From the NCBI GenBank assembly GCA_035905775.1, contig JAMIGJ010000044.1, positions 2-64,001 on the forward strand: 64,000 bases of DNA, read 5' to 3'. Each line of letters begins with the position of its first letter. The stretch's first letter is position 1. The position numbers and the translations under genes are program-made. Positions 9,169-58,723 of the stretch are shown one piece after another. The notes beneath the pieces were generated by a model. It was given only the letters and a program-made list of their open reading frames with translations, did no database searches and was not told the origin of the DNA. This DNA is from Candidatus Altimarinota bacterium (GTDB lineage Bacteria > Patescibacteriota > Gracilibacteria > BD1-5 > UBA6164).

Positions 9169-9870
9169 ATGAAAAAAATATTATTTCTCATACCTCCCAG
9201 CGAAGGAAAAACTTCAGGATGAGAGCTCTGAAATGAAACTCTCAACTTTCATTTTGAAAAACCAACAAAAATAATAGAGCAAGCAAACGAAAAAGATCTC
9301 AAATGCAAGGGAAAACGTTTTGAGGAAGCGCAGGAACTCAATACTTTATGTAGTTCTCCTCTCCTGCAAGGGAGAGGAGATTCAGAGGTGAGGGCTGCGA
9401 TTGCTCGCTATAATGGAGTGATGTATAGCGCAATTGATTACGACGCAATGACTTTGGATGCGCAACATATTTTTGATAGGCATTTTTTGATATGTTCTGG
9501 GATGTATGGACTTGTGTGACCACAAGACGCAATAGCAAACTATAAACTTCCGATAGAGACGAAGTGACTTTCGCATTTTTGGAAAGAAAAAATCACTCAA
9601 ACACTCAATGAGAGTAAGTTTAATATCATCGTAGATGTACTTCCAGGAAGCTATAAAAAGATGATTAACTGGAAAAAACTCCATAAAAAAGTCATAGTGG
9701 TAGATTTTTTTGAAATGAAAGATGGAAAGAAGAAAAAAATGACGCATGGAGTAAAAGCCGTGAAAGGGAAATGGATTAAAAAACTCTGTGAAAAAGATTT
9801 CACAGAGTTTGAAAACATGATTCTTGAAAAAATATCACAAGGGGAAACTAGGCTTGAGGTACTTCAATAA
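9169..9870 (+). CDS. yaaA: YaaA-like peroxide stress protein (UPF0246/DUF328)
   Basis: Motifs LIPPSEGK, RYNGVMYSAID, ICSGMYGLVG(TGA)PQD, YKLP, FWKEKIT and THGVKAVKG. 4 in-frame TGA, TAA stop. Confidence 0.75.
9348..9394 (+). repeat. PE-1 palindromic element copy inside yaaA coding sequence
   Basis: CTCCTCTCC-TGCA-AGGGAGAGGAG followed by ATTCAGAGGTGAGG. Translated in-frame as CSSPLLQGRGDSEVR. Confidence 0.65.
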
Positions 9871-10555
9871 GCAAAATATCACTTTCACTTTCTGCAGTAA
9901 AACCTATTTTTTGATTGATTTCTAAAATCCCAATTGCATCACGAGTGTGCAGAAGCGTGTCTTCTACTACAAAACTTCCTGAAATATTCATCACATAGAT
10001 GATATTGTTTGCTTTTTGGAGTTGATACTCAAAACTCTCTCCAGTGTTTGTAAGTCTTCGAGAAATATACGCATCTTGGTTGATAAAGGCAACATCATCT
10101 CGTTTTATTGGTCCAGAAAGTAAGGTCCATTCTCCATTTTTGAGAGTGTAGGCTGCTTGAGAATATTGAGGATCAATCCCATTTTCTCTCGTATGTATCC
10201 AAATTTGAAAGAGTTCACAGGCTATAAAAGGATCATGATTCATCTCAGAGTGATAGACTCCACTTCCAGCAGACATGGATTGTACTTCTCAAATAGATAC
10301 GATTCCAGCGTTTCCCATAGAATCTTTATGAGAAATACTTCCCTGAAGTGGAATAGTGATAATTTCCATATTTGCATGAGGATGCATTCAAAATCCCTTT
10401 GCAGGAGCAATCCAATCATCATTGATGACGCGAAGAGCTCAAAATCCCATACGATCGGGATCATAATAATCCGAAAAAGAAAACGAAAAATTACTTCGAA
10501 GCCACGAAATTTCTGATTTTCATCGAGTATGTTCTGGAAAAAATATAGTTTTCAT
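9848..10555 (-). CDS. pirin-family protein (cupin)
   Basis: Motifs HPHANMEIITIPLQG and MSAGSGVYHSEMN. 4 in-frame TGA. Its start shares TAATG with the upstream gene's stop. Confidence 0.85.
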
Positions 10556-11190
10556 TATGAGAGGTGAAGGATAACATCATCGTTTGCATAGCGAATCTTT
10601 GGTCGAGTTGCATAGCTATCATCTGCTGCGCGGTATCAAACTGGAAGAACGAGAACACTCGCAAGTCCCAATTCAGGAAGTCCAAGCACTCTATCATAGT
10701 CAGCTTTCGAGAATCCTTCCATAGGGCACGCGTCTATCTGCATGCTTGCAGCGACGGTGAGAGCATTCCCGAGTGCGATATATACTTGTTTTTCTGCCCA
10801 AGATGCAGCCATCTCTGGACTCAAATTTTGGATAAAACCAAGCATCGTATCTTTGTATCCCTGAAGTGCTTCAGCGGGAGCTCCAGTTTTTTGGATCATA
10901 TCTGCGATGTAGGACTCAACGTGACTTGCATCAAGCGCTGTTTTACGGCATAAAACTAGCAGATGACTCGCATCAGCTACTTGTCTTTGTCCCCAAGAGT
11001 GAGTTACCAGCTCTTCTCGAACACTTGGATTTTCTACCACTACAAATTTCCATGGTTGGAGTCCAAAACTACTTGGAGTCAGTCGGAGTGCTTCGAGAAG
11101 CGTTTCAAATGCTTCAGCAGAGAGTTTTTTTGTGGCATCAAATTTTTTGGTAGCATATCTCCAAGAGAGTGCAGAAATCATGTTATTCAT
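10555..11190 (-). CDS. NAD(P)H nitroreductase
   Basis: Nitroreductase signatures RYATKKF, QPWKFVVV and CPMEGF. One TGA read-through extends the ORF to TAA at 10555-10557. Looks more GC-rich than its neighbours by eye. Confidence 0.85.
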
Positions 11191-17109: not shown

Positions 17110-17183
17110 TGGCTGGGATGGAGGGGATCGAACCCCCGATGCCGGATTCAGAGTCCGGAGCCTTACCACTTGGCGACATCCCA
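17110..17183 (-). tRNA. tRNA-Gln (anticodon CUG)
   Basis: Cloverleaf with acceptor TGGGATG/CATCCCA, anticodon loop CTCTGAA, T-loop GGTTCGATCC and an encoded CCA. Confidence 0.9.
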
Positions 17184-17291: not shown

Positions 17292-17669
17292 CTACTTGAT
17301 TTCAACAGTTGCTCCAGCTTCTTCAAGTTTTGCCTTGATTTCTTCAGCTTCAGCTCGGTCAATACCTTCTTTTACAGCACCTCCTGCATCTACAAGAGCT
17401 TTTGCTTCACCAAGTCCAAGTCCAAGAAGTTCTTTTACTACCTTGATAACAGCAATTTTTTGTCCTCCTGCATTAGCAAGGATAACGTTTACTTTCGATG
17501 GTCCTTCATCTTCAGCAGCAGCTCCACCACCAGCAGCAACCATTACAGGAGCAGCAGCAGAAACTCCAAATTCTTCTTCCATAGCGTGTACGAGGTCGTT
17601 GAGTTCAACGATAGTAAGCTCTTTTACAAGCTCCATAATCTTAGCAGCGTTTTTTGATAATTCAGCCAT
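17292..17669 (-). CDS. rplL: 50S ribosomal protein L7/L12
   Basis: [19 protein letters not shown]..., an Ala/Gly hinge, and C-terminal domain [19 protein letters not shown]. No TGA. Confidence 0.95.
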
Positions 17670-17804
17670 TTTTGCAGAAATTATAAAAATAAAAATATAT
17701 TTCATCAAAGAAATTTTTTCCAATATCCCAAAACATTGGGATGTATCTCCACGAAATAGGGGATACTGAATACATCTCTTCTATGCTAGCTTTTGAGGCT
17801 AGTC

Positions 17805-17887
17805 AGGATTCTAAAAATGCTGTAGAGAACGAATGTATTCGTTCAGGTATGAATATTTTCATACCCTACAGACCATTTTTAGAACCT
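17805..17887. repeat. nested palindrome (three-way junction) in the rplJ-rplL spacer
   Basis: Outer stem AGGATTCTAAAAATG/CATTTTTAGAACCT, then CTGTAG/CTACAG, enclosing hairpins AGAACGAA/TTCGTTC and GGTATGAA/TTCATACC. Confidence 0.6.
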
Positions 17888-17902
17888 TAGACTAAACACA
17901 AA

Positions 17903-18556
17903 TTACTCAGCTTTTGCTTCTTCTGTTGCAGGAGTTTCAGTAGGTACTTCTTCAGACTTTGCTTCAGTTGGAGCTTCTTCTGTTTTCGCTTCAGGAGCTG
18001 CATCTTCAACTTTTGCTTCTTTCTTTGCTTCGAGTTTTCCAACTACATCTTTTCCTTGAGTTTCAAGGTCTTTCGCAGCAGCATCAAACCAGCGAGCCAA
18101 TCCAGCAAGAGGAGCTTGCATAGATCCAACGAGTCGTCCAAGAAGGGTTTCTCGGCTTGGCATACCAGCAATTGCTTTGGTTGCTGCTTCATCCTGAAGT
18201 TCTCCTTCAAAGATAGAAACCGTCCAATTTACTTTTTCACCTTTCGTTTTTGTAACGACTTCATTTACTTTTGCAAGTCCTGCAATCGCATCATCGTTCG
18301 AACATACCATTCCAATTTGTCCTGGAAGGGTTTTGAGATCAATATCGATATTGAGCACATTTTTAATCGCTTTCACGATAATCGTCTTTTTTGCAACCGT
18401 ATAGTTCGCGTTTACAGATCGAAGACTTTTTCTCATTGCTTCAAATTCACTTACAGAAAGTGCGTTTGTTTTTGCAAAACCTATTGATTTTGCTGCTTTA
18501 ATTTTCGCTTCTAGATCTGCGATAATCTCTGCTTTTTGTTGTTTTGTTACTGCCAT
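17903..18556 (-). CDS. rplJ: 50S ribosomal protein L10 with acidic C-terminal extension
   Basis: L10 N-terminus MAVTKQQKAEIIADLE. Upstream of rplL. 217 aa with an E/A/K/T/P-rich tail. No TGA. Confidence 0.9.
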   Translation of the reverse strand: MAVTKQQKAEIIADLEAKIKAAKSIGFAKTNALSVSEFEAMRKSLRSVNANYTVAKKTIIVKAIKNVLNIDIDLKTLPGQIGMVCSNDDAIAGLAKVNEVVTKTKGEKVNWTVSIFEGELQDEAATKAIAGMPSRETLLGRLVGSMQAPLAGLARWFDAAAKDLETQGKDVVGKLEAKKEAKVEDAAPEAKTEEAPTEAKSEEVPTETPATEEAKAE

Positions 18557-19614: not shown

Positions 19615-19698
19615 TGGTGCCCAGGAGAAGACTCGAACTTCCACACCATACGGCACTGGTTTCTAAGACCAGCGTGTCTACCATTCCACCACCTGGGC
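19615..19698 (-). tRNA. tRNA-Leu (anticodon UAG)
   Basis: Acceptor GCCCAGG, anticodon loop CTTAGAA, long variable arm, T-loop GTTCGAGTC, encoded CCA. Confidence 0.9.
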
Positions 19699-19713
19699 AT
19701 TGCATAAAAAATC

Positions 19714-19798
19714 TGGTGGGCAGAGAGGGATTCGAACCCCCGAAAGCGAAGCTAAGGGATTTACAGTCCCCCCCATTTGGCCACTCTGGAATCTGCCC
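19714..19798 (-). tRNA. tRNA-Tyr (anticodon GUA)
   Basis: Acceptor GGGCAGA, anticodon loop CTGTAAA, long variable arm, T-loop GGTTCGAATCC, encoded CCA. Confidence 0.9.
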
Positions 19799-19876
19799 AA
19801 ATAAAAAACCTCACCCGAACTCTTTTTATGGAGAGACCCAAAGGATTTTTTGGATGAGGAGTTTCAAAAATTTCAA

Positions 19877-19952
19877 TGGAGCCACTTGTCGGATTTGAAC
19901 CGACGACCCTTCGCTTACAAGGCGAGCGCTCTACCAGCTGAGCTAAAGTGGC
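19877..19952 (-). tRNA. tRNA-Thr (anticodon UGU)
   Basis: GCCACTTTAGCTCAGCTGGTAGAGC, anticodon loop CTTGTAA, T-loop GGTTCAAATCC, encoded CCA. Confidence 0.9.
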
Positions 19953-28837: not shown

Positions 28838-28996
28838 CTACATTTTCGGAGTTTTTTGTCTGCGACATCTCTCGCTACAATACAGTACTTGCTCAAAATT
28901 GTTCTTCCATTTTTTACGTATCGTAAAAGGCTTCTGGCACACTTTGCAGAGCTTTGCTTCTTTGAGTTTTCATCTATCGAGCAGTTTCATAATCAT
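28838..28996 (-). CDS. DUF2256-like small zinc-binding protein
   Basis: [30 protein letters not shown]. Its start overlaps the photolyase 3' end by about 20 nt. TAG stop. Confidence 0.65.
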
Positions 28997-30374
28997 CTGA
29001 TTTGTAGAGTTCTCGAGCCTTGTGCGTCTCGATGCGATGGTCAACTATTGTGGGACAATACGAAAGAGGAATTTCGAGAGGATTATGGATTGCTTTTACA
29101 CTTTCAAACTCGAGCTGCGGGATATATTTTTTGATAAACGTTGCTTGTGTATCAAATTTTTCACTTTGCAGCATCGGACTAAAGACTCGAAGGGGTTTTG
29201 GATCAGCTCCCACACTTGCTGACCATTGCCAGTTTCCGAGGTTTACTGCCTCGTCATAATCGAGCAGTTTTTCTGCAAAGTATCGTTCTCCGAGTCTCCA
29301 GTCGATATGCATATCTTTGGTGAGAAAACTTGCAACCACCATACGAGCCCGTCCATGCATCCAATTTGTTTCGTTGAGCTGTCGCATCGCAGCATCTACG
29401 ATAGGATATCCAGTTTCTCCACAGCACCATTTTTGAAACATCTCTTCATCTTGAGACCACTCAATATGCCTTCGTTTTTCCTGAAATTCTTCGTTTTTTG
29501 TGTTCGGAAAATAATAGAGAATGTGCCACCAAAACTCTCTCCATGCCATTTCTGAAATAAAATGCTCTGCTCCACGAGTCCTATCAGCTCCATCATGTCC
29601 ACTTTGTGTGGCATCCAGTTCTCGAAAACTTTCAAGAGCTTGTTTATAAATCTGTCTCACCGAAAAAACTCCAAATCTGAGATAGGGAGAAAGTCGGGAT
29701 GTCCCATCTTTATCGAGATCATTTCTCACATCACTGTAATTTCGTAAAATATGTTTTTCAAAACGCTCTTTTCCAAAATCCATTGTAAAATAAGAATGTT
29801 TTTCATGAGCTATGAAATCTCAAGCTTGTGTGTGATCTTCACTGTCGAGTTGAGAAAAATACTCAAGTTTTGGAAGTATCTTGAGTGATTCAGGATGAGC
29901 TCTGAGATATTTTTGCCAGAGTTTATAGTAAGGAGTAAATACCTTTCTTTGCTCGATTTCCTGAGGTTCTACAAGGAGAAAGTCTTTGTGCGATTCAAAC
30001 TTGCATCAAAAAAAATGAATCTTTTCCGCAACGAGTTCATCACGTTTTTTTCCATACGTTCCATAACTCGTATTCGTAAATACACACTCGATACCGTATT
30101 TTTTCACGAGTTCTGGTATGATTTCTTCTGGTTTTCCTTTCAAAACGATCACTTTTTCTCCTCAGATTTTTTTGAGATTTTCTGAAAGAGTATCAAGTGC
30201 TTCTCGGATAAATCAAAACTTGATGTCAGAGAGTCCTCAAAATTTCTCAAGCAAATGCTCATCAAGGATAAATATCGGGAGAATATTTTCTGAGTTTTGT
30301 ACAGCTTCAAAGAGTCAGGTGTTATCATCGAGACGCAAGTCTTGCCTGAACCAGAATATAGATTTTTTATACAT
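28974..30374 (-). CDS. phr: deoxyribodipyrimidine (CPD) photolyase, class I-like
   Basis: Motifs IFWFRQDLRLDDN, SRLSPYLRFG, WREFWWH and GYPIVDAAMRQL...WMHGRARM...NWQWSAS. 466 aa, 7 in-frame TGA, TAG stop. Confidence 0.9.
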
Positions 30375-30699
30375 AATTTTGCGTGAGTTTACGAATATAT
30401 TTTTTTTCTCATTGTGCAATTTTCTCTCCATCTTGAAAGAGGATTGCTTGTAGTGTATCAGAATCAACTCGGATGAGGGTGCATTTCCACTGCTTTGCGA
30501 TACAGACTTTTTCCCACAGATTTTCGAGATTTACGCGGTCCTTATGAGTGATTTCAAGATATTTGTTTTTCAGAGCCCGTTCGTATTTTGCTTCTTCGTA
30601 GCTATAGAGATGATGAGGAGTTCCACGGGATCCGATTTTTGCTCCCGATTTTTTTCCACGTCGCAGCTTATCGATATGTTCGAGTTTTATTTTTGTCAT
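30367..30699 (-). CDS. hypothetical protein (110 aa)
   Basis: ORF 30409-30699 extends through one TGA to TAA 30367-30369, overlapping the photolyase start by 8 nt. Confidence 0.55.
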
Positions 30700-31161: not shown

Positions 31162-32682
31162 TTAAAAAAGAGATATTTGGAGTGTTACGGAAGTCTTCTT
31201 CGGTATTTTTTTGCGTCCACGGAACACTCGGCTTCCGTGTTTTTTATATATTTTTTCTTTGAGTTCTTTTGGGAGAACTCATTTGGTTTCCCAGAGGATT
31301 TTTCGAGCCTGTCTATTTGCTTCTTCTATATCTATGATTGCTTGAGGATACTCCAAGCTTTCAAAATGTTCCCATTTCCATGGTTCATGGAGACACTCTT
31401 TGGGAACTTTTTGGAGTTCGGGAATATATTTTCGAATGAGTTTCCCATCGGGATCTTTTTCACGACCATTGAGGACAGGATTATAAATACGTATGGTATT
31501 AATTCCACTGGTCCCTGCCTGCATCTGGAGCTGACTGTAGTGAATTCCAGGTTCATAATCGAGAAAGAGCTTCGCAAGTCTCCCTCAGATAGTCTGCCAA
31601 GGTTGCATACAGGTATTACACAAAAAACTCGTCAGAATGGCTCGACTCCGAAAATTGCACCAACCAGTAGCTTGCAGCTGACGAATCGTTGCATCAATGT
31701 AGGGGATGCCTGATGTTCCTGTAAATACTCTTTCGACGAGTCCTTCATCTGCTTGGCTGCGTATCATATCAAAGGCAGGATTAAGGTTTTTCCACTCGAT
31801 GCTGGGCTCATCCTCGAGTTTTTGGATAAAGTGCGATTGCCAATGCAGTCGTGCGAGAAAAAAATCAAGTTGTTTGATGAACCCTTTTCCACTTTCTCAG
31901 GGGAGAGTTTTGAGTTCTTGGATGCGTTTTTGGGTTTCCTGATAGATATATTTGACCGAGAGACAGCCAAACGCGATATAGGGAGAAAGTCGTGAACAGG
32001 AGTCTTGGGACTCAAAAGGTTTTGAAATATGATAGCTATAGTTTTTTGCTCGATTCCATAGAAAATCATCAAGGACTTTTTTCCCAACATCTTCTCCTCC
32101 TGCTTGAAATCATTTCAGGTCTTGTATTTTTTGTGCAAAACTCCGAAAGGTTTGTTGTGAAAGTATTTCGAACTCTCCAAGCTCCAGAGAGAAGCTACAT
32201 TTTTGAGGTGCAAAAATTTCTTCATGCATCCGAGTATTCCAGATACGCGACCATACATCTCTACTTTTGAGCCTTCTCACGACTCCATTTGTAGGATATT
32301 CTTTGAGTCGAATATGCTGATCTTTACAGAATTCAATTACTTTGAGATCTCTCTGAAACGTTAGAAAGTTCCCAGTTTCCTCATGAGAAAAGATTTTTGT
32401 GATATCATAGTGTTTTTGTAAAAAGGAAAAACCTTCTAGAGCTTCGTAAGGAAGAGTAATGAGAGGGATATTGTATTTTTTGAGATTTTTTTTGAGAACT
32501 GAGAGACTTTCGCAGACAAATTTGAGATGTCTCTCGCTCGAGTCTGGAGCTTCAAGAATGGAGTTTTCAAAAAAATATACCCCAAGCGTTGGGATATCCG
32601 GCTTGAAATTTGCCAAAATCTCGTTATCGTGAATACGAAGATTTTTTTTAAACCAGATTATTTGTATTTTTTCTCGTTTCAT
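31162..32682 (-). CDS. cryptochrome/photolyase-family flavoprotein (second paralog)
   Basis: Motifs IIWFKKNLRIHDN, SRLSPYIAFG, ARLHWQSHFIQKLEDEP, GIPYIDATIRQL and IHYSQLQMQAG. 506 aa, 5 TGA, all triplets checked. Confidence 0.85.
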
Positions 32683-32821
32683 GCACGAAGCTCAAATTAT
32701 ATTATACCACCAGTTGCGAGAGGATTATATATATTCAAAATATACTCATATTATATATATCCATCATACGGGAAAAATCAAGTTTCAGTGAAATAATTTG
32801 AACCTCAATGTTCATAGCAAG

Positions 32822-34150
32822 ATGATTGACTATGCAGGAGGGAAGTATTTTATGAACGAACTTTCAAAAAAAGGTTTCAAGGCAAACTTCTTTTGTAGTA
32901 CCAGCTATCTTTCATGACTCAAAAAATATGCAAAAAAGCATCATATCACAAAATATGTTCTGGTAAAACCACTCGAGGACTATGTGTATAAAAATTTTTT
33001 AAAAATCCAAAAAGAGCTTGAGAAAGCCTCAGTTGAACTCGAATTTCTCCCTGATACTCAGAGTTTTTTCCTGAGTCACGAAGATTTTTTGAAGCAATAC
33101 CAAAAACCTCCCATTCTCGAGTATTTTTATCGCTTTATGCGAAAGAGAGAACATATCTTAGTGGGTGAAAATAATGAGCCTCTTGGAGGAAAATGGAACT
33201 ATGACGAAGAAAATCGCAAATTTGATAAAAGCCATAGTAGATCTTGGAATTTCTCTCTCGAAAAAAATAGCTTTGTGCTGGAGGCAGAAGAATATTATAA
33301 TGGAGCACTATTTCCAAACTTAATCCCTACGAACCGTCCTGAAGCTTTGAAGCTTTTAGAGTATTTTTGTGAGCATCATCTTGCTGATTTTGGGAGACTT
33401 GAAGATGCGATGTATGAGACAGATAATTATGTGCATCATAGCCTGCTTTCCACTGCCATAAATTTTTGATTTCTCTCTCCAAGAGAAGTACTTGAGAGAG
33501 CGCTCTCCCAGGCAAATATTCCTCTTTCGAGTTTAGAGGGATTTGTCAGACAAATTTTAGGGTGGAGAGAATATATGTATCACTTTTTCCAGTTTTATAA
33601 AGACACTATACACACAGAAAATCATTTTTCTCATACTCGAAGTCTGCCATCATACTTTTGGAAGGATGCAGAGATTTGTGAGATGAATTGTCTTTTTCGA
33701 ACCTTGAAACAGGTACAAACCGAGCATTACTCGCACCATATCCAACGACTCATGGTTATCGGAAATTTTGCCTTACTTTCGGGACTTGATCCGCATGAAC
33801 TCAATAGATGGTTTTTTGAGTACTATACCGACGCATTTGAGTGGGTGGTAACTCCCAATGTTCTCTCGATGAGCCAATTTGCAGACGGAGGAAAACTTGC
33901 AACCAAACCCTATATAGCATCAGCCAATTATATCTCTGGGATGTCCGATTATTGCAAAAATTGTTACTATGATGCCAAAGAAAAATACACAGAAAATGCC
34001 TGTCCCCTCAACTATCTCTACTGGGATTTTGTCGCGCAAAATAAAACTGCCTTTGAAAAAAGACAGCCCTTTATCGTAAAAAATCTTGCAAAAATAGATA
34101 TTGAAAAAGTGAGGGAGCAGAAGGAGAGGTTTTTAGGGAAGATAATCTAG
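32822..34150 (+). CDS. FeS-BCP / (6-4) photolyase-like protein (COG3046 type), N-terminus apparently short
   Basis: Motifs EYFYRFMRK, GGKWNYDEENRK, RQILGWREY and the Cys cluster YCKNCYYD...CPLNYLYWDF. Start is uncertain (ATG 32822 or 32852). Confidence 0.75.
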
Positions 34151-41907: not shown

Positions 41908-43461
41908 ATGCTACACTCAAAGGGAATTATTTTTAAATATGTGCTATTTATGTCAGGAGAAAAACAAGTTTTTGTCTCAGTCGAAGGAGGACTTGATGGA
42001 GTACGAAGGAGAAATTTGCATCTTACCGTGGGACTTTTGAGCTTTTCGACGATGATGTTTCACTTTACGAGTGTTTTTTTCTTTACCTTACAGCTTGAAT
42101 CCTTAGCTCTAGTGGGGATATTTCTCGGGCTTGGAAATCTCTTTGCGTTTCTCTTTGATGTACCAATCGGGATACTACAATACTATCTCAAATCGAAGAC
42201 TCTCTATCTCCTTGGAGTTGCAGCTCAGGTTGTTGCGATTTTGATATTTGGAAATTTTATTTTTGAGGCAACAGATTTCATCTCGCAAAATCTCGCAGAA
42301 AATGCCGGGCCACTCGATGGACTCTTGAGATTTTTCCTAGGAAATGTCTTGAATCTCATTTTGATGCTCGTTGCTGCGATGTGTTATGGATTTAGTAAGG
42401 AAGTCAATGATATTACCAATATCTCCTATGTTCTCAATAATGCCACTCCCGATCAGTACAAATCTATTTTTGCGACCAATAATATTGCTTTTGGGATTGG
42501 TTCATTTCTTGGGCTTTTGATATCAGGATTTATTCTCAGTTCTTCTCCAAAATTTATCATACTTCATATCCTTCTGATTATCATCATCATATTTTTTGTG
42601 ATGAATTACTATTTTGATAATGCAAAAACCACCCTTGATCTCAAAGAAGTACAAAAATTTCAAGTCTACTTAAAAAAATCATCCCTCAGTAAAGCTCGTG
42701 AAAATGTCACGCAAGTCGTAAAAAGTATCGATATGAAACAAACCTTGAGTCAAACAAAATACCTCTTTTTACGTCCGATGGTCCGTAATCCCAATATGAT
42801 TAGCGTTTCGCAGATGCAACAAAAAACCATTGAAAGCTTTCATGAGATTTATGCAACTTTAGCCTTTGCACGAGGAAAATACCTGATCGTGTACTGGTCT
42901 TTTGTGATGCTTCTCACCTTTGGGTTTTGGGATACCTTTGCTTCGACCTTTCTCATAGATTTTCTCAATCAGGTAAAGTCAGGATGGAGCTTTATTTTAC
43001 TTGGACTTATCGCAGTCCCTGCTTTCGGATTACAGGGATTATTTTGAAAACTTGCAGATAAAATTGGGGTCTTTAAAATCGCAAGTTTTGGACTGTTGCT
43101 TTCTGGAGGATCGCTTCTTTGTATGGGATTTTTTACGGGAGATCCTATAAATCCATATATCGTGATGGGGCTTGCGCTCATCAACTCTGTAGGATATGCG
43201 ATCTGTATGGGGCTTTCTGCTGCGACTTTTCTCGAAAGTTATAATGCCTCTTATGCAGAGCTCAAGGGGCTCAAGCAAATAGATGCCAATGCCTCTGCGG
43301 CTCCAATGAAGATACTGCAAAATCTTGCGAATGTAGTAGGGCTTTTCCTTGGATGACTCCTCGTTTCATTTGCGGGATATGGAGGATTTTTCATCCTTTT
43401 TGGACTCATGATACTCGTATTTTTGGGATGGTCACTTATAAATAAACACAATATACAATAA
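41908..43461 (+). CDS. MFS-type transporter
   Basis: About 12 hydrophobic segments. Three fragments lie in one frame joined by TGA. Start is uncertain (41908 or 41950). Confidence 0.7.
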
Positions 43462-43534: not shown

Positions 43535-45238
43535 ATGCGCTACAATATACGGGTTGCAGGAGCTGCAGGTCTGGGGATGAACTCAACGGCAGACATCATC
43601 GTGGAAGTCTTTGCGGAGCTCGGGTATCTTGTCAATACCGATATCGAGTATCAATCTCTGATTAAAGGATGAGTCAATTATTTTGACATCTTTGTATCAG
43701 ATCGATCAAAATATATTTCAAAATATGTGGATGTGCTTATCGCGCTTGATAGTCTCAATCTCGCTGCGTGGCTCAAGGATCTCAAGTCTGGAGCTTGTAT
43801 CATCACGAATCAAAAAAATATCGAAAAGCTTGAGGCAAAAGGGCAAGATTTTTCTGCATATAATCTCCTGCCAGTTGCCAGTGACGATAAGTATGATAAT
43901 ACCTATCTTATCAGTATTTTTTCCAAACTTTTCGGACTTCCTGCGCATCTGCTTGAGGAGAAAATAGCAAAAATATTTGCAAAAAAATGACCAGATGTCG
44001 TCGCTCAAAATATTGCTCTGTTTCAAAATATTTTACAAAGTTATGATATCCCAGCTCATATCAGCTTTCCAAAGTTTGACTCCATTGGTCCAGCTCGTCC
44101 TGTCAGCTATGGAAATAAGATGCTCGCACAAGGGGCAATCGATAATGGACTTGAATATTACTCTGCTTATCCGATGACTCCAGCATCAACGGTACTTTCT
44201 GAAGTGATTAAATCTAAAAAAGTTCCATACTTGCAGGCAGAGGATGAAATCTCAGTTGCGATGAGCGCACTTGGTGCGAGCTTTGCAGGGAAGAGGTCTA
44301 TGGTTGGGACATCGGGAGGAGGTTTTGCACTCATGGTCGAGTCTATCTCGTTTGCCATACAGGCAGAGTTGGGGCTTTCGATGATACTCGCTCAGCGAGC
44401 AGGTCCAAGTACGGGAACTCCTACCTTTCATGAACAGGGAGATCTCAATCTCGCTCTGAATCCAAGTTTTGGGGATTTTGATCATATCGTGATTGCTCCA
44501 AGTACGCTCGAAGATGCCTATTATCTCTCAGGATATTCTCTCAATCTTACTCAAAAATATCAAACCATCGTCATCGTCCTCATCGATAAACAGTTCTCAG
44601 ACGGAAAGGCAACCCTCGAAGAAGAACTCAAAACTGCAGGAATCAACCGTGGAAAGCTCGAAATGACTCCAGCAAGTGACTTTAAACGATATGCGCTCAC
44701 AGACGACGGAATTTCTCCATACTCTATCCCAGGAACTCCAAACGGAGACTTTATCGCAACGAGTTATGAGCACGATGAGTTTGGGGCAACAACAGAAGAT
44801 ACAGACATGAAAATGAAGATGACCGAAAAGCGCTGGAAAAAACTCGAAAATTTTTATGAAAAAGAAGGGATATGTGGGTATGAGGTGTTTCACTCAGAGA
44901 CCGGTCTCGTATGAGACCGGTCTCAAGCAGGACTTAGCCCAAAAAAAATGCTTCTCACAACGAGTTACACGAGTTATACCGCAAAAGAATTTATCAAAAA
45001 TAATCCTGAGTTTGGACTCATCATCGTAAAATTTCTCAAGCCACTTGATACAAGACTTCGAAACGAACTCGTAGGAAAGTCAGAAATCATCTTTGTAGAA
45101 AGCAACTACTCAGGACAACTCGAAAACTATATCACCAAAGAACTTGGACTGGCCTATATCGACGGACTCAAAATCTCAAGACTGCGAAAATATGACCTCT
45201 ATCCATTTTACTATGAGGATTTTGAAACGCTAAAATAG
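43535..45238 (+). CDS. korA: 2-oxoacid:ferredoxin oxidoreductase, fused gamma-alpha subunit
   Basis: N-terminal gamma-like domain IRVAGAAGLGMNS, then an alpha domain YSAYPMTPAS, GTSGGGFALM. 567 aa, 3 TGA, TAG stop. Confidence 0.85.
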
Positions 45239-45452
45239 TTATATGTATTGAAAAAGAAGAATAATTAAATGAATTCCAGCAATATTATCCTTAATATTTT
45301 TTGGATGTATTTTTATTTTTATATTGATATATTCATATATATATTTAGATATTATTACATCAGTAATTTTAACTCCATTTGTTTTATTTACTTTGATGTC
45401 ATTTTATAATTGAATTAAAGAAGAAATTACCAAATTAAACAATAAATAACCT

Positions 45453-46061
45453 ATGCGTAGCTGACTGACAAACATACAATGGTGTCCAGGATGTGGAGAT
45501 TTCCTCATCATCATGGCCCTCAAAAATGCCTTTAAAGAGCTTGAAATCGCGTCTCATAATCGCGTGGTCGTTTCTGGAGTTGGATGCTCTGGAAAAGCAA
45601 GCCAATACGTGGACTGATATGCAGCTGAAACGCTTCATGGACGTGCGGTGCCATTTGCGACGGGAGTGAAGCTCGCAAATCCTGAACTCACGGTCGTGAT
45701 TATGGGAGGAGACGGAGACGGATATGGGATTGGGATGGGGCACTTTATCCATGCATGTCGTAGAAATATCAATATGCTCTATATCGTGTTTGATAACGAA
45801 AATTACGCACTTACCACAGGACAGGCAAGTCCAACCACTCCACTCGGGGCTCAAACCAAAACCACTCCAGATGGAAATACCGTTGCTCCAATAGATCCAC
45901 TCAAGCTCGCAGCAGATGCTGGATGTACTTTTGCTAAACTCGGGCACTCCAAAGATTTCAAAGCACTCAAAGAGCTTATTAAGGAAGCGATACAACATCC
46001 AGGATTTGCACTTATCAATGTGATTCAGGATTGTCCAAGTTTTAAGAGATGGGGAGAGTAA
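45453..46061 (+). CDS. korB: 2-oxoacid:ferredoxin oxidoreductase beta (TPP-binding) subunit, short
   Basis: Motifs WCPGCGDF, GVGCSGK, HGRAVPFATG, GGDGDGYGIG and YALTTGQASPTT. 202 aa. Confidence 0.85.
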
Positions 46062-46077
46062 CATGATATATTACGAC

Positions 46078-46106
46078 AAAAGCCGTTCCTATAGGAACGG
46101 CTTTTT
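46078..46106 (+). terminator. Rho-independent terminator
   Basis: Stem AAAGCCGTTCC/GGAACGGCTTT with loop TATA, then T's. Confidence 0.7.
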
Positions 46107-46276
46107 GCTGTTGTGGGAGAACCAATATGGAAGCCTTTCTTCTTCATCTGATTCCCCCTGTTTTGAAAAATTTCCCGCGGCGCCAGATTATTTCACTGCG
46201 ACGAGTTTCATTTTCTCCTCCCTTCTTGTTAGAAGTAAAGTGAATATAATTATTTTTTAAATTTAGTCAAATATTT

Positions 46277-48055
46277 TTACTCTACATACAAAATATCCTT
46301 CCAATCCGCTCGGTAGAGTCCTTCTCCGAGCCTTTTTTGATCGATGGCATGTCCGATAAACCCGATACTTCTGGCAAGCAAGAAGAGCCCATTAAAAATC
46401 CCTGCCTCGATGTAGAGCTTTTTTTCATCGTAGTCCATGCTGATATCCTCGAAGATATCCAAAAGCATCGCAGCAATGTATCCGTCGACATTGAGGATGA
46501 GATTTGGCTTTTTTTCGAGGGTGAGTTCTGCTACCTGTCTGGCAAAATCAAGATGTTGGTGAGTTGGAAAATCTTGTGCGAGTGTTTCGAGGATTTCACA
46601 ACGAGAATCAGGGTTGAACTTGGATTTTACCTTGTGCCCGATTCCTGCGATATTTTCTCCAGCATCTTTCATACTCGCAACAAAGTCTTCAGCTGAAATA
46701 CCCGTTTTCAATGCCTCAAGCCAGTTTTTTGCAGCTCCGTCTATCGCTCCTCCAAAGCGTGGTCCGATAGCCGTGAGTCCTGCGATGAGCGAGGATTTGA
46801 GATCATTTCCCGCACGAGAAGTGATGATGGTGTTGATGGCTCCAGAAACCGCAGGTCCATGGTCAGCAACGAGCACTAAAACCGTGTTGAGAAATTTTTT
46901 CGCATAGTCTGGAAGAGATTTTTTAAGCCAGAGTTGTCCGATGATTTCTGCGATATCAGGATGTTGCGTAAACTCAGATATTTTTTTCCCATTGTATAGG
47001 AGTTCCTCACCTCGTTCGTCCGAAATAGACGAAGTAAAAGAAGTTTTTCTGCGATGCTTGATGTGAGCGAGTTTCTCGGAGAGAGTATCTGTTTGAGAAG
47101 AGTCTCTTTTGAGACCAGTCTTTTGAAATACTTCCTCAATCTTCTCTCCAAAATCCATATAGCTTTCTGGAACGATGGCTCCTGCATTTCTGAGAGCCAT
47201 ATTTTTATAACTGGCAGTTTCTTCGTCTTTGTTGGACTTTGCTCCTGCATGTCCAAATTGTACTTCTCCCTTGATATGTTCGTTAATCGTTCCGATACAC
47301 CATGCAACGACGGGTTTAGTAATTTCTCATGTCTCTATCATCCGTGCTACCTCGAGTTCGTCGCGTCCTCCGATTTCCCCGAGCATCACGATCATTTTGA
47401 TGTGTTCATCTGCCTGCATGATGTTCATCGCAGCAGGGAAATCCATGATATTATACTTATCTCCCCCAAGAGCGATAGAAAGCGCAGTTCCATTCGTTCG
47501 GTCTGCGATCACACGACGCAGTTCATTACTCATCCCTCATGATTTTGAGACAAATCCGACATTTCCCGGCTCATAGAGTCGTGAATCAACGATATTTTCG
47601 AGGCTTCCACCTGTGTTTCCAGCACGAAATACTCCCGCACTCATCGCTCCAACCGTTGCTGGTCCGATGATATTGAGTCCAAGTTCCTTATTTTTTTCGA
47701 TGATTTCAAGCGTGTGTCTCTCAGGAATTCCCTCAGCAATGATGATAATATTTTTGAAATATCCAGTATCCATCGCTTGCAACGTCGATTTTTGAGCAGA
47801 GCGAAAGCTTGCAAAATTTACTAGAGTATCGAGTTTTTCGGAAATACTTGTTGGTATATTTTCAAAATCTGAAAAACTAGGAACGAGAATTTCCTTGTCT
47901 CCATAAAAGAGCTTTTGCAGGGCATATTTTTTTCCAGGATTCACAAAACAAAGCACTGATGCTTCTCGACCAGAGAGAAAATCAAAATCGAGCATGTGTT
48001 GAGCTGCTCCCGTTTGGAGACCATAGATGCAGGCAAAAGAATTTTTGGTAAACAT
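46277..48055 (-). CDS. aclA: ATP-citrate lyase alpha subunit (CoA-binding, CoA-ligase and citrate-synthase-like domains)
   Basis: Three fragments lie in one frame. Phosphohistidine loop VQFGHAGA, and C-terminal LVLVADHGPAVSGA...GPRFGGA...GIGHKV. 592 aa. Confidence 0.8.
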
Positions 48056-48057
48056 AA

Positions 48058-49266
48058 TTAGAGTTTTATTTCATTCAAAATATCAGTCATATAGTGGTCA
48101 CTTCCGGTGATATGTGCTGGAATATCGAGCCTTTCACAAGCAGTTTTTAGGAGTTCAAGTCATTTTTTTTCGTTGATTCCTCCTCGTCGTACGAGGATTT
48201 CTATCTTTTGTGCTCGGATTTCTTCTTGGAGTTCTTCGAGGATATCGATGACTCCCTGAAAGGTCGTTGCTATATCGGTAAAGTTTGCAATCGCTCCTGC
48301 GATAATGAGGTATTTTTTTTGAGTCTGAGGTTTTGCTTTCAGCACCTCTTTCACTAACACTCGCACATATTCTCTGGTAAATTCTCGAGTCGGATTTCCA
48401 GACAGTTCTCCATAATTTCCTATTTCATGAGCATATCCAAGAGCTCCGAGTGAGTCCGTCATCACGAGTGACCCTCCTCCTCCGGCAAAAAGTGTCCAAA
48501 TACTCGCATTTGGATTTAAAATCTTGAGCTTCAGGGAAGCTCCCGTTTGCATATCAAGTTCTCGGATATATCGCTCGGCAGCTGACTCCTGAAATCCAAA
48601 ATTATTCGGAAACTCTATGAGAGCCCAGTGCTCTTTTTGAAGAAAATGTTCGCAGTCATCGATCTTTGCTACCGCGTCAAGCAGATGAAAATTTCCAAAA
48701 GTATCTTCAGAAATAGGATTAAACTCGAGACTGGTAAATCCATGCGTGCGATAAAAATCAAAGAGGGAAGAGATGAGTTCTTGAAGCTTCTTCTCTCCTT
48801 GTAGAAGAGAATTGAGAGAGGTTTCCTCCAACTCATCATTTACTTTTACGACTATACTTTTCGTAGTTTCCCAGTTTTCTTCGATATCGACTCCTCCTGC
48901 AGGAGAAAAAGTGACGATATCTCCATCTCGACTTTGCGTAAAACTCAGATAGTATTCTTGCTTTATTGGGAGCATTTCTTCTGCGAGAAATACATCGAGT
49001 GTTCCAAGTACTCCATCGATATTGACTTCTTTTTTGTACCAGTCTGTAAGCCATTCTTTTGCTTCGCTTCTCGCGAGGTTGATTCCGACCATTCCGCGTT
49101 TTCCGCGTTTTCCAAAGAGCATATCAGGTTTTAAAACATATTTTTTTTCTGTATCAAGTTTTTCTATATCTGAAATATCTCGAATTTGGATTCCAGAATA
49201 AAAAGTTCCAGCATATCGTGCAAACATCTGTTTTACATCATATTCTCGCAGTGAAATCTGAGCCAT
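48058..49266 (-). CDS. aclB: ATP-citrate lyase beta subunit (ATP-grasp and citrate-binding)
   Basis: MAQISLREYDVKQM..., KPDMLFGKRGK, LEFNP, and IAGAIANFTDIA. Its stop is 2 nt before the aclA start. 402 aa. Confidence 0.8.
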
Positions 49267-49493
49267 AAAGTAGGGAAAAAAATTTTTAATGCTGAGATTA
49301 TACAAAATTTTTGTATTTTTGAAAACATAATTTATACTAGAAAGTAATATTTTTTGAAAAAAAATTATGGTACAGTCATCGTTCAGTATGCTTCTGCAAC
49401 TGGTTATTTTAGGAATTTTTCTTTTTATTGTCCTTTTTGTATTTTTGAAAAAATAAAGTATAATTTTCACATATATTTTATAATTCTGTTTTT

Positions 49494-50891
49494 ATGGATC
49501 TTACCTCTTATGCATCTCTTCCGGAACTTTCATTTCTCTTTCTTTTGGCTTTTGTACTATGAGCTTTTGTAGGGATACAAAAAGATATCCTTGGAAATGA
49601 GAAAACAGGAGCATTTCGTAATAAAAATACCAGTAATGATTTTGCAGGAATTCGTTCTTTTGGACTCATTGCGATTCTTTGAGCCCTCATGCAATTTTCA
49701 GACCAACTTTTAGGAAGTTATTTAGTACTCACAATTATTGGTCTTATTATCATAGCAATATTTGTCTATGTAGATTATGTATTTCATGTATTTCGAAAAG
49801 AGCAGCAATCTCCAGCCTCAGAAATTGCGGTGATACTCGTGTATCTTTTATGAGTTCTCATATTTCTGAATCAAAAGGAGATGGCAATTATCTTTGCTAT
49901 TTTTATCTCGCTTATAATCTCAGCAAAAGATACACTCCATAATCTCATGCAAAAGATATCTCGTGATGAGCTCAATACCACACTGAAATTTGCAGCAATT
50001 GCTTTTGTGATTCTTCCACTTCTTCCAGATGTAAAATATTCTTTTTCAACGCTTTTTCAGTCACTGGGGTTCACAGAAGCTGCTCAAATCCAGCTTCCTA
50101 TTTGGACGATGGAGTTTTTTAATCCTTACTCTACATGGTTTTTCGTAGTAGTGATGTCTGGGATTTCCTATATTGGATATTTTATGACACGAATCTTTGG
50201 AGATAAATCAGGGATTATCGCATCATGTGTGATGGGAGGGATGATATCTTCCACGGCAGTAACAGCGTCTATGTCAGAAGAAAGTAAAAAACATCCTCAT
50301 AACTCTTCTCTCTATACCACAGGTGCTTTGCTGGCTTCTGGAGTGATGTTTCTGAGAGTGATCGCGATTATTGCCTTTACCTACAGTGCACTTTTAGCTG
50401 CAGTATTTATCCCTGCTCTTGCTATGTTTGTCGTTTTTATTGGCTTAACCGGATATTTTTATCTCACTTCAAAAAAACAGGCTTCGCAAGAAGTACATAT
50501 CGAGGAAAAAGTACAAAGTCCATTTCAAATTGCTCCTGCGCTCAAATTTGCAGCCTTTATTCTGATGATTAAGTTTATTGCGGCTCTCGGGATTGCCTAC
50601 AAAGATCTCATTCCACAGGAGATATTTTACTACGGTCTTGCCATCATCTCAGGACTTGCAGATGTAGATGCGATTACTCAGACGATGTCTGCGAATGCAA
50701 AATCTGGAGAGCTTGCAGCTCTCATTGCAGGGACGACTATCCTGATTGCCGTGATGTCCAATAATCTCGTCAAAGGATCTCTCGCGTTTCGTTTTGGAGA
50801 AAAAATGTTTGGACGAAAAGTTCTTCTTACCTTTATTGTTTCGATGATCGCAGGGATTATTGCTTTAGTGTTTCCTGTATTTTTCTCCTAG
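49494..50891 (+). CDS. MgtC/DUF4010-family membrane protein
   Basis: ATG 49494 is joined to the track ORF through 3 TGA. Polytopic, with the LADVDAITQT motif. Confidence 0.7.
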
Positions 50892-56542: not shown

Positions 56543-57424
56543 ATGCGAAGCGAAGCGAATACCCGAAGGGTAAAAAAAATAACAAAATGCGTGATTCCAG
56601 CAGCAGGGATGGGAACGAGATTTCTTCCAGCAACCAAAGCACTTCCAAAAGAGATGTTTCCGATTGTGGATAAACCCGTGATGCAATATCTCGTCGAAGA
56701 AGCCATTGCAGCAGGGTGTACTGATATCATTATCATTACTGGACGTAGTAAACGTGCGATAGAGGATCATTTTGATAGTAATCCTGAGCTCGAAGCACGA
56801 CTGGATAGTTCTGGAAAATTTGAGTATCTTCAAAAAGTAAAATCTGCTTCAGGTGGAGCCAATATCGTCTATGTACGACAGCCCTATCCAAAAGGAGATG
56901 GTGATGCTATATTGCGAGCGAAAAACCTCATCGGAGATGAACCTTTTTTGGTGCTTTTCGGAGATGATATTATTGATAATCCTATAACAGCAGCAGAGCA
57001 ACTCGTAAAAAAATTCGAAGAAACAGGCAGAGTAGTGATAGCAACCATCGAAGTCCCAGCGAGTGAAGTAAAAAATTATGGAATCGTAGAAACAACAGAA
57101 AATCTTGAGGTTACTAAATTTCTTGAAAAGCCAAAGTCAGGTACAGATTCTCGTAGAGCAGCAATTGGGAAATATATCCTGACTCCAGATATATTTCGCT
57201 ATCTCGAAACGGCAGATTCGAGTGTTGGAGATGGAGAAATTCGTCTTGCAGATGCCTTTATTTCCATGCTTCAAAATGATAGTATTTTTGCACTCGATAC
57301 TCTCGGAACTCGCTACGATACAGGAAGTAAAATAGGATATCTCAAAGCCTGTATCGCATACGCTATGAAAGATGAAGAAGTAAAAGATGAGTTACAAGAG
57401 TTTTTAAAAAAAATCACTTACTAA
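56543..57424 (+). CDS. galU: UTP--glucose-1-phosphate uridylyltransferase
   Basis: Motifs VIPAAGMGTRFLPATKALPKEM, PKGDGDA and EKP. No TGA. 293 aa. Confidence 0.9.
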   Translation: MRSEANTRRVKKITKCVIPAAGMGTRFLPATKALPKEMFPIVDKPVMQYLVEEAIAAGCTDIIIITGRSKRAIEDHFDSNPELEARLDSSGKFEYLQKVKSASGGANIVYVRQPYPKGDGDAILRAKNLIGDEPFLVLFGDDIIDNPITAAEQLVKKFEETGRVVIATIEVPASEVKNYGIVETTENLEVTKFLEKPKSGTDSRRAAIGKYILTPDIFRYLETADSSVGDGEIRLADAFISMLQNDSIFALDTLGTRYDTGSKIGYLKACIAYAMKDEEVKDELQEFLKKITY

Positions 57425-57484: not shown

Positions 57485-58723
57485 ATGCTTCAACTCCTTT
57501 CTGATCCCGATATCCCTTGCTTTTCGCAAATGCAAGATGTTATCACTTCACTTCTTGGGAAACGAGAAAATCTTGGTTTTATCGATGTCGATGAAACGGT
57601 TGATACTGCTGAGATTCATGAATATATTGCAAAGATTTGAGACCAATTTGATACTATGGTCGTACTCGGTATCGGTGGTTCTGCACTGGGGACGAGAGCT
57701 GTGTTTGAAACACTCAGAGGCAAGTACCACAATCAAAAGCAAGCAGTCAAAAAACTCTATATCCTCGATAATATCGATCCTGAAAGTATTACGGATTTGC
57801 AGGAGCAACTCGATCTTTCAAAAACACTTTTTTGCGTGATTTCCAAGTCTGGAACCACGGTGGAGATTCATGCACTCACAACGTATTTTATGAATCTCAC
57901 GAAATCTCGTGTAGACAAATGGAAAGAGCATTTTTGCTATGTGCTTGGAGAAAATTATTCAAAAAAAGCAGAAATACAGAAACATTTCCAGACCTTTTCT
58001 CTTGCAGATAATATTGGAGGAAGATTCTCGGTATTCACTCCCGTAGGACTTCTCCCACTTGCCTTCGCTGGAGTCGATATTGATGCCTTACTTGCTGGAG
58101 TACAACACGCAAAACAGAGATTTTTGTCTGAGGATATAGAGCAAAATACAGCTCTGAGACTTGCGTTCTTACAATACTATTTTTATGAAAAAGAGGGAAA
58201 AAATATTTGTGTGCTGTTTCCTTACTCGAGTCGTTTGGGGGGAATCGGAGCGTGGTATACGCAGCTTCTTTCTGAAAGCATCGGGAAAGACAGTATCGGG
58301 ATCACTCCTATCACCGCAGTCGGAGTGACCGACCAACACTCGGAGCTTCAGCTCTTTCAGGATGGTCCCAGAGATAAGTTTTTTATGAGTCTACAAATCG
58401 CAGAGCACATAAAAAATCCTCTCATCGATGCAGAAAATCACTTTGGTTTTGCTGAATTGCTTGAAATCGAGAGATATGGGACGCTCACTTCTCTCCAAAA
58501 CGACGAAGTCCCACTTGCAGCTCTCCAAATAGATGATATCTCAGAATCGTCACTTTCCGAGCTTCTCTACATGCTTGAGTTCCAGATTGCCTATCTTGGT
58601 GAACTTTTCGGGATTAATGCCTTTGATCAACCCGGAGTCGAGAAATCAAAAATTCTTACCAAGCAAAAACTCGCACAAGATTTTCCCAATCTTGATTTGG
58701 CTACGAAGTCTCAGGAGTTTTAA
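57485..58723 (+). CDS. pgi: glucose-6-phosphate isomerase (short form)
   Basis: Motifs VVLGIGGSALG, ISKSGTT, GGRFSV and DQPGVE. ATG 57485 is joined through one TGA. Confidence 0.85.

Follow-up and report, generated by a model that had tools for sequence, protein, structure and literature searches.

The closest described system is that of a closed genome from the Candidatus Gracilibacteria (CP042461.1; Sieber et al. 2019, mBio 10:e02128-19, PMC6851277), a lineage of the candidate phyla radiation (CPR). A two-subunit ATP-citrate lyase (ACL) and an OFOR (2-oxoacid:ferredoxin oxidoreductase) were reported from this genome of 1.34 Mb, which lacks glycolysis as well as the majority of the steps in the tricarboxylic acid (TCA) cycle and carries putative citrate transporters. 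It was proposed that scavenged citrate is split into acetyl-CoA and oxaloacetate with no TCA cycle in place, and the ACL subunits were considered to be of archaeal-like origin. In this work we have analysed the genes aclB and aclA of an ACL, together with the adjoining genes korA and korB of an OFOR, in a stretch of 64,000 nucleotides from contig JAMIGJ010000044.1. This whole stretch is referred to as the window.

Solved homologues are available for both enzymes. Human ACLY and the ACLY-A/ACLY-B pair of Methanosaeta (Methanothrix) concilii (6hxi, 6znw, 6hxh, 6o0h and others) represent ACLs of eukaryotes and archaea, the human enzyme being one fused chain with a regulatory linker; the physiological role of eukaryotic ACL is lipogenesis. 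The AclBA of Chlorobium limicola (6hxj) is heteromeric, encoded by two genes, and works in a complete CO2-fixing cycle. In Hydrogenobacter, homologous chemistry is carried out in two steps by citryl-CoA synthetase (CCS; 6hxq) and citryl-CoA lyase (CCL; 6hxp), which are separate proteins without a fused lyase module. For the OFOR, the references are the Sulfolobus tokodaii OFOR (5b46/5b48) and the 2-oxoglutarate:ferredoxin oxidoreductase (OGOR) of Magnetococcus marinus (6n2n). In both, the alpha subunit has a gamma-type domain and domains I and II, the beta subunit has a thiamine pyrophosphate (TPP) site and one [4Fe-4S] cluster held by four cysteines, and there is no delta or ferredoxin subunit.

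ACL and OFOR are already known from Gracilibacteria. A preliminary description of the window had presented ACL in a CPR genome as surprising; its presence stands, but the surprise does not, since it had been published by Sieber et al. and since NCBI annotates many Gracilibacteria proteins as ATP citrate synthase. A survey from 2025 additionally found aclAB enriched in another CPR class, the Saccharimonadia. What is added here is an adjacency of ACL and OFOR that only some relatives share, a conserved short KorB and a consideration of both directions of the ACL reaction.

The ATP-citrate lyase and its genetic code

The two ACL genes are located on the reverse strand. aclB (48058-49266) encodes 402 amino acids and aclA (46277-48055) encodes 592 amino acids. 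The stop codon of aclB (48058-48060) and the start codon of aclA (48053-48055) are separated by 2 nt, as had been noted before, and the two genes are translationally coupled. The products almost certainly form a true heteromeric ACL (EC 2.3.3.8), which is predicted to be catalytically intact. Three lines of evidence bear out this assignment, namely the arrangement of the domains, the conserved catalytic residues and the scores against solved structures.

Pfam matches to AclB were PF24948 (ACL ATP-grasp; 150 bits, cut-off 83) and PF16114 (Citrate_bind; 188 bits, cut-off 26.8). AclA was matched by PF00549 (Ligase_CoA) and, at residues 363-575, by PF00285 (citrate-synthase C-terminal domain). Four motifs pointed out earlier in AclA (VQFGHAGA, ADHGPAVSGA, GPRFGGA and GIGHKV) were all found in the translation described below. 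The AclB/AclA architecture suggested in the preliminary description is borne out by these ACL-specific domains, by the conserved residues, and by scores far above those to succinyl-CoA synthetase (SCS), CCS and CCL.

AclA aligned collinearly from end to end with residues 492-1094 of human ACLY (543 bits, 46.7% identity) and scored 534 bits against M. concilii ACLY-B. The score was 295 bits against Chlorobium AclA, at most 95 bits against SCS alpha, 79 bits against the small subunit of CCS and 65 bits against CCL. AclB scored 309 bits against M. concilii ACLY-A (AclB residues 1-397 to 1-413), 247 bits against human ACLY, 124 bits against Chlorobium AclB, 49 bits against the large subunit of CCS and 34 bits against SCS-beta. 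Scores against the human and Methanosaeta structures were thus 5-6 times those against SCS, CCS and CCL, and neither protein was placed in SCS or in another ligase family devoid of citrate-binding and citrate-synthase-like domains. The subunits are split at the same point as in Methanosaeta, unlike the single human chain. Chlorobium AclBA shares the heteromeric organization, the two genes and the domain order, but is much more distant than the archaeal enzyme.

Conservation of residues in AclA was counted over the query and its 120 best homologues (n = 121). Residues E108, H269, H399, H474, R485 and D524, which correspond to human E599, H760, H900, H975, R986 and D1026, were invariant, and H269 is part of the loop EVQFGHAGA. 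Equivalents of human R1065 and R1085 are also present in AclA, where the query alone was checked. In AclB, G290, N328, T330 and R361 align with human G309, N346, T348 and R379. Following the structures of citrate synthase and ACLY, we take the set H900/H975/D1026 and the arginines to be catalytic or substrate-binding residues, and G309, N346, T348 and R379 presumably contact citrate, as in the human complex. A list of citrate-site residues in CCS (G, G, A, N, N, T, R; bioRxiv 10.1101/2022.10.25.513756) partly corroborates the latter. AclA and AclB agree with human and Methanosaeta ACL at the catalytic Glu (human E599), at the phosphohistidine (human H760), and at the residues for citrate binding and for the citryl-CoA lyase reaction. 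One difference is human R976, at whose position most of the Gracilibacteria sequences (108 of 121) have Lys.

When open reading frames (ORFs) were called with table 11, all four genes of the locus were fragmented and each break was an in-frame TGA, with one to three of these codons per gene. With code 25, where TGA encodes Gly, all four ORFs agree exactly, in position and in length, with what was first reported for them. Of the TGA codons in these genes, six lie inside alignments to solved homologues, and at five of these (AclA 173 and 243, AclB 369, KorA 46 and 152) the homologues have Gly. Furthermore, 32 other Pfam-supported genes of the window contain 135 in-frame TGA codons, and these genes end exclusively with TAA (21) or TAG (11). 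The genetic code is therefore 25, the code of Gracilibacteria and Absconditabacteria. A reading of the four genes as pseudogenes was dropped, as the breaks are TGA codons at Gly positions. ORF finders using the standard code break up nearly every gene of the window. A tRNA scan of the window found four tRNA genes (Gln, Leu, Tyr and Thr) and no tRNA-Gly(UCA), the gene for which may be located elsewhere in the genome.

By its homologues, the organism belongs to the Gracilibacteria (CPR/Patescibacteria). In agreement with the CPR-type genome recognised earlier, the best homologues of AclA and KorB, as well as those of a flanking major facilitator superfamily (MFS) transporter and of PilB, come from metagenome-assembled genomes (MAGs) of Candidatus Gracilibacteria; the MFS transporter and PilB are 54-75% identical to genes of two such MAGs. 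The 120 best AclA homologues have 53-80% identity and, wherever they are named, carry the name 'ATP citrate synthase [Candidatus Gracilibacteria bacterium]'. One of them (P0038, from Gracilibacteria bacterium 28_42_T64, 65% identity) is the protein of the published closed genome, which has the same lineage, genetic code, aclB-aclA pair, domain layout and GHAGA loop, but where the ACL is not beside an OFOR. The window belongs to a different species, a new species-level member of the lineage whose nearest AclA is 80% identical.

Among the same 120 homologues, 12 proteins are about 1000-1030 amino acids long and carry, behind a full AclA, part of another AclA copy (residues ~141-591) that comprises the ligase and the citrate-synthase-like module. 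These proteins, all from outside the window, are P0043, P0047, P0051, P0053, P0054, P0056, P0065-P0067, P0073, P0074 and P0109. A tandem-duplicated AclA of this kind was not known to us.

A scan of genome contigs with one protein gave five loci, four in Gracilibacteria MAGs and one, with 46% identity, in a MAG of a Nanoarchaeia (DPANN) archaeon. A search of 1.84 billion cluster representatives, using the 80% identical P0001 as query, returned 209 clusters at E <= 1e-30, from which we conclude that the ACL family is small. Only one of the ten best representatives carries an organism name, that of a fungus. A rough neighbour-joining tree was built from ACL-type sequences alone, with no outgroup, no support values and few labelled tips. 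In this tree the Gracilibacteria sequences, including the query and P0038, cluster together; their closest neighbours are unnamed metagenome proteins, and next comes a group with human and fungal ACLY, the Nanoarchaeia sequence and a Methanothrix-like protein. Judged by these sequence comparisons, the ACL of the window belongs to a eukaryote/archaeal-type clade, and the tree agrees with the published remark on archaeal-looking subunits.

The Nanoarchaeia locus (L005, 3148-6236 of DATDXI010000069.1) has an aclB-aclA pair with 46% and 38% identity. The locus belongs to an ultra-small DPANN archaeon, presumably host-dependent, with a stand-alone ACL.

The 2-oxoacid:ferredoxin oxidoreductase and its position beside the lyase

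The genes korA (43535-45238, 567 amino acids) and korB (45453-46061, 202 amino acids) are located on the forward strand, convergent with the ACL genes. KorA is an alpha subunit with a fused N-terminal gamma-type domain, and its gene contains three in-frame TGA codons read as Gly. Pfam matches were PF01558 (gamma-type POR domain) at residues 12-165 and PF01855 (POR_N) at residues 200-423, with no separate Pfam model matching domain II. The nearest solved structures are the alpha subunit of the Magnetococcus OGOR (6n2n_A, 195 bits) and the a subunit of the Sulfolobus OFOR (5b46_A). KorA carries YPMTP, a variant of the YPITP motif.

KorB is a short beta subunit with a TPP-binding domain and a single [4Fe-4S] site. 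Its sole Pfam match is PF02775, and it matches TIGR02177 with 270 bits, above the cut-off of 261.9, over positions 2-191 of 286. Together with the KorA domains, this upholds the fused gamma-alpha KorA and short KorB of the preliminary description. Alignments of KorB end at residue 201 of 304 in 5b46_B (starting from residue 9) and at residue 214 of 292 in 6n2n_B. Cysteines C11, C14, C45 and C194 correspond to C12, C15, C46 and C197 of the Sulfolobus (St) b subunit and are kept in at least 116 of 121 sequences; we take the four Sulfolobus residues to be the ligands of the single [4Fe-4S] cluster. The TPP motif is retained, and the protein ends about 8 residues past the fourth cysteine.

From its sequence, the OFOR is of the two-subunit alpha-beta type and plausibly intact. 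Two results count against this assignment. KorA matched TIGR03710 (OAFO_sf) over its full length with 425 bits, which is under the cut-off of 482.75. KorB, unlike the beta subunits of Sulfolobus and Magnetococcus, lacks the C-terminal domain of about 90-100 residues (the PFO_beta_C region) that is present in all solved homologues, and because of this the OFOR activity is itself a prediction. No downstream ORF supplies the missing domain, and the stop codon is followed by a hairpin.

The short form is the same in all of the 120 best KorB homologues (P0121-P0240), which have lengths of 163-209 amino acids, mostly 200-205. Short KorB is a lineage-specific form that is conserved across the Gracilibacteria family. 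It is the least documented observation of this work, and we met no discussion of a short OFOR beta subunit in literature searches that were not aimed at it. Many of these homologues have been translated with TGA as Trp (code 4) and have W at Gly positions that are invariant in the family; for the Gly in the GDG TPP motif (query position 86) this concerns 56 of 121 KorB sequences. Public predictions for the lineage are consequently partly mistranslated.

The aclB-aclA pair is kept in all related ACL loci, and the MgtC/DUF4010 membrane protein gene next to aclB (49494-50891, forward strand, divergent from aclB; PF02308 and PF13194) is a conserved neighbour. Adjacency to an OFOR was missing in six of the nine related loci examined (L001-L004, L008 and L010). 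Four of these (L001-L004) have no OFOR within 10 kb of the ACL, the published closed genome (L010) has ACL genes that do not adjoin an OFOR, and another Gracilibacteria genome (L008) has KorAB at a different place from ACL; L009 contains KorAB alone. The layout of the window, with korA-korB converging on aclA-aclB, was found again in L006 and L007, which are metagenome contigs independent of each other. One of these (L006) additionally shares the downstream DUF4010 gene at the same position and the genes for a Tag glycosylase, a metallo-beta-lactamase and ABC proteins. The adjacency of ACL and OFOR thus characterises a sub-clade, and the four genes are not a conserved module.

Upstream of korA lies the gene for the MFS transporter (41908-43461, forward strand, 517 amino acids, PF07690). 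In two of the loci (L001 and L002) an MFS gene with 54-63% identity (tblastn) is directly convergent with aclA, with no KorAB between them. KorAB in the window therefore looks like an insertion between the MFS gene and aclA, or alternatively like a loss in L001 and L002. As KorAB and AclAB are convergent, they do not form an operon.

Non-coding elements and other genes of the window

Between korA and korB there is an unusually long spacer (45239-45452) of 214 nt with 17% G+C, whereas in three relatives (L006, L008 and L009) the two genes are 3-5 nt apart or overlapping. The spacer may have been inserted or may contain an internal promoter. Several promoter-like hexamer pairs lie within it; these are not significant evidence. 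The best pair, TTTTCA-17-TATAAT with 10 of 12 consensus matches, is found on the reverse strand at 49297-49325, 31 nt upstream of the start of aclB. It is a match to the consensus only, and such pairs are no more numerous in the region than in shuffled sequence.

Where korB and aclA converge, a hairpin with a perfect 12-bp stem (AAAAGCCGTTCC-TATA-GGAACGGCTTTT) was read directly from the sequence at 46078-46105, in the stretch that separates the two genes. It is flanked by runs of A and T and is probably a bidirectional intrinsic terminator, although it was not among the sites listed by a consensus terminator scan of the region, perhaps because its A and T runs were counted as part of the stem.

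The window also encodes a GalU-type nucleotidyl transferase (56543-57424) and a phosphoglucose isomerase (57485-58723), which may serve the sugar metabolism of the cell envelope. The published Gracilibacteria genome, in contrast to this, was described as wholly lacking glycolysis. A DNA photolyase, a photolyase-related DPRP protein, a pirin, a nitroreductase and a YaaA peroxide-stress protein are likewise encoded (28974-30431, 32459-34150 and 9169-11190), and this set hints at a life under light and oxygen rather than under strictly anoxic conditions. A protein of 610 amino acids (3997-5829) is covered by DUF7897 from end to end (550 bits). The gene for tRNA-Gln(CTG) stands alone at 17110-17183, and those for tRNA-Leu(TAG), tRNA-Tyr(GTA) and tRNA-Thr(TGT) form a tight cluster on the reverse strand at 19615-19952. 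Near this cluster, at 17292-18556, are candidate genes for the ribosomal proteins L10 and L7/L12, judged by eye.

Direction of the reaction and possible physiology

The most economical reading, and one we consider reasonably probable, is that a stand-alone ACL cleaves scavenged citrate and that no reductive TCA cycle is present. It is based on the closed relative, which was read in the same way (PMC6851277), and on the window itself. The four genes and 30 further proteins of the window were scanned with Pfam, and among these 34 proteins no aconitase, isocitrate dehydrogenase, fumarate reductase, fumarase, malate dehydrogenase, SCS or ferredoxin was found. Both the earlier statement that the window holds no other cycle gene and the earlier preference for citrate cleavage over a reductive cycle agree with these observations, the latter having been published as a conclusion for the related closed genome. 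The data show how the genes are built, which code and families they have, which residues are conserved and where the organism is placed. We infer the direction of flux, the source of citrate, what the OFOR acts on and, from 64 kb of the genome, that the remaining cycle enzymes are missing.

According to this proposal, the cell would import citrate that a host or detritus provides. AclB would bind ATP and citrate, and phosphorylation of His269 in AclA would lead through citryl-phosphate to citryl-CoA. The fused C-terminal lyase module, with H399, H474 and D524, would then release acetyl-CoA and oxaloacetate at a cost of one ATP. The OFOR would interconvert a 2-oxoacid, probably pyruvate and possibly several 2-oxoacids, with acyl-CoA, CO2 and ferredoxin, and it would in this way feed or drain the acetyl-CoA pool of the ACL. 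No usable substrate-specificity residues for distinguishing OGOR from POR were found in the literature.

A number of points weigh against citrate cleavage as described. The ACL reaction is near equilibrium and its direction is not readable from sequence, and our literature searches found no biochemical data for any Gracilibacteria ACL. No recognisable citrate carrier was found by Pfam among the 34 proteins; a role of the MFS transporter in uptake of citrate or another carboxylate is speculation, as no substrate could be assigned to it. The closed relative is reported to lack fatty-acid synthesis, lipids being among the building blocks it obtains externally, and no ATP-yielding enzymes that form acetate or short-chain acids were identified in it (PMC6851277), so that there is no obvious sink for acetyl-CoA. 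Finally, the functional link between ACL and OFOR is weakly supported, since the gene pairs are convergent and the adjacency is absent in six of nine loci.

The main rival is that the ACL is mainly citrate-forming, converting acetyl-CoA, oxaloacetate, ADP and Pi to citrate, CoA and ATP, and this we regard as rather unlikely. The ACL would then be a step of substrate-level phosphorylation and at the same time a sink for acetyl-CoA. Acetyl-CoA would be made from pyruvate by the OFOR, aspartate or malate would provide the oxaloacetate, and the host or the community would receive the excreted citrate. A biochemical precedent is Desulfobacter postgatei, the ACL of which is reported to operate in the oxidative direction with formation of ATP by substrate-level phosphorylation (Moller, Schauder, Fuchs & Thauer 1987, Arch Microbiol 148:202, as listed among the references of PMC9768450). 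An ATP-yielding sink for acetyl-CoA would answer both of the gaps left in the closed relative, where the source of ATP was discussed as an open problem (PMC6851277). An OFOR producing acetyl-CoA is, moreover, placed directly beside the ACL in part of the clade (L006 and L007), but this adjacency is not conserved. No sequence feature is known that tells the two directions apart, and excretion of a C6 acid would be a costly loss of carbon for a scavenger. The putative citrate importers of the published genome (PMC6851277) also speak for uptake, though carriers can export as well.

A wider proposal, which is more doubtful and should be taken as tentative, is that the Gracilibacteria ACL is an ATP-conserving citrate synthase, fed by a compact OFOR and by oxaloacetate from scavenged aspartate or malate, and that the short beta subunit is a minimal OFOR architecture. 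If this were true, citrate formation would be the main substrate-level phosphorylation of these glycolysis-free cells, with citrate excreted as end product. A beta subunit without the C-terminal domain would then define a minimal OFOR architecture that is unrepresented among solved structures.

Participation of ACL and OFOR in a complete reductive TCA cycle with CO2 fixation is very improbable. The two enzymes are the classical markers of that cycle, and the best solved match of KorA is the CO2-fixing OGOR of Magnetococcus; for KorB, however, the Sulfolobus OFOR with its broad specificity is about as close. The ACL is a member of the eukaryote/archaeal-type clade and not of that of Chlorobium AclA, the solved structure of the reductive-cycle type (295 versus 534-543 bits). 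The scanned proteins of the window include no other cycle gene, the closed relative with an ACL of the same clade lacks most TCA steps (PMC6851277), and the genome is of a type found in reduced symbionts or scavengers.

That the genes encode an SCS- or CCS-type ligase, or are pseudogenes interrupted by stop codons, is effectively refuted: no NCBIfam family with an ATP-citrate lyase name matched AclA or AclB, their best named matches are the models for SCS alpha/beta and CCL, and the standard code gives each gene one to three TGA stops, but those matches are all far under their cut-offs (e.g. 125 versus 353 bits), the ACL-specific domains with the fused citrate-synthase-like module and the 5-6-fold higher ACL scores contradict a ligase, and the TGA codons stand where Gly is conserved, with 135 more of them in 32 other genes that stop with TAA or TAG alone.

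The window extends a documented pattern by one genome: Gracilibacteria differ from most CPR bacteria in that they have both an OFOR and an ACL of the eukaryote/archaeal type. These bacteria seem to centre their metabolism on scavenged organic acids and not on sugars.

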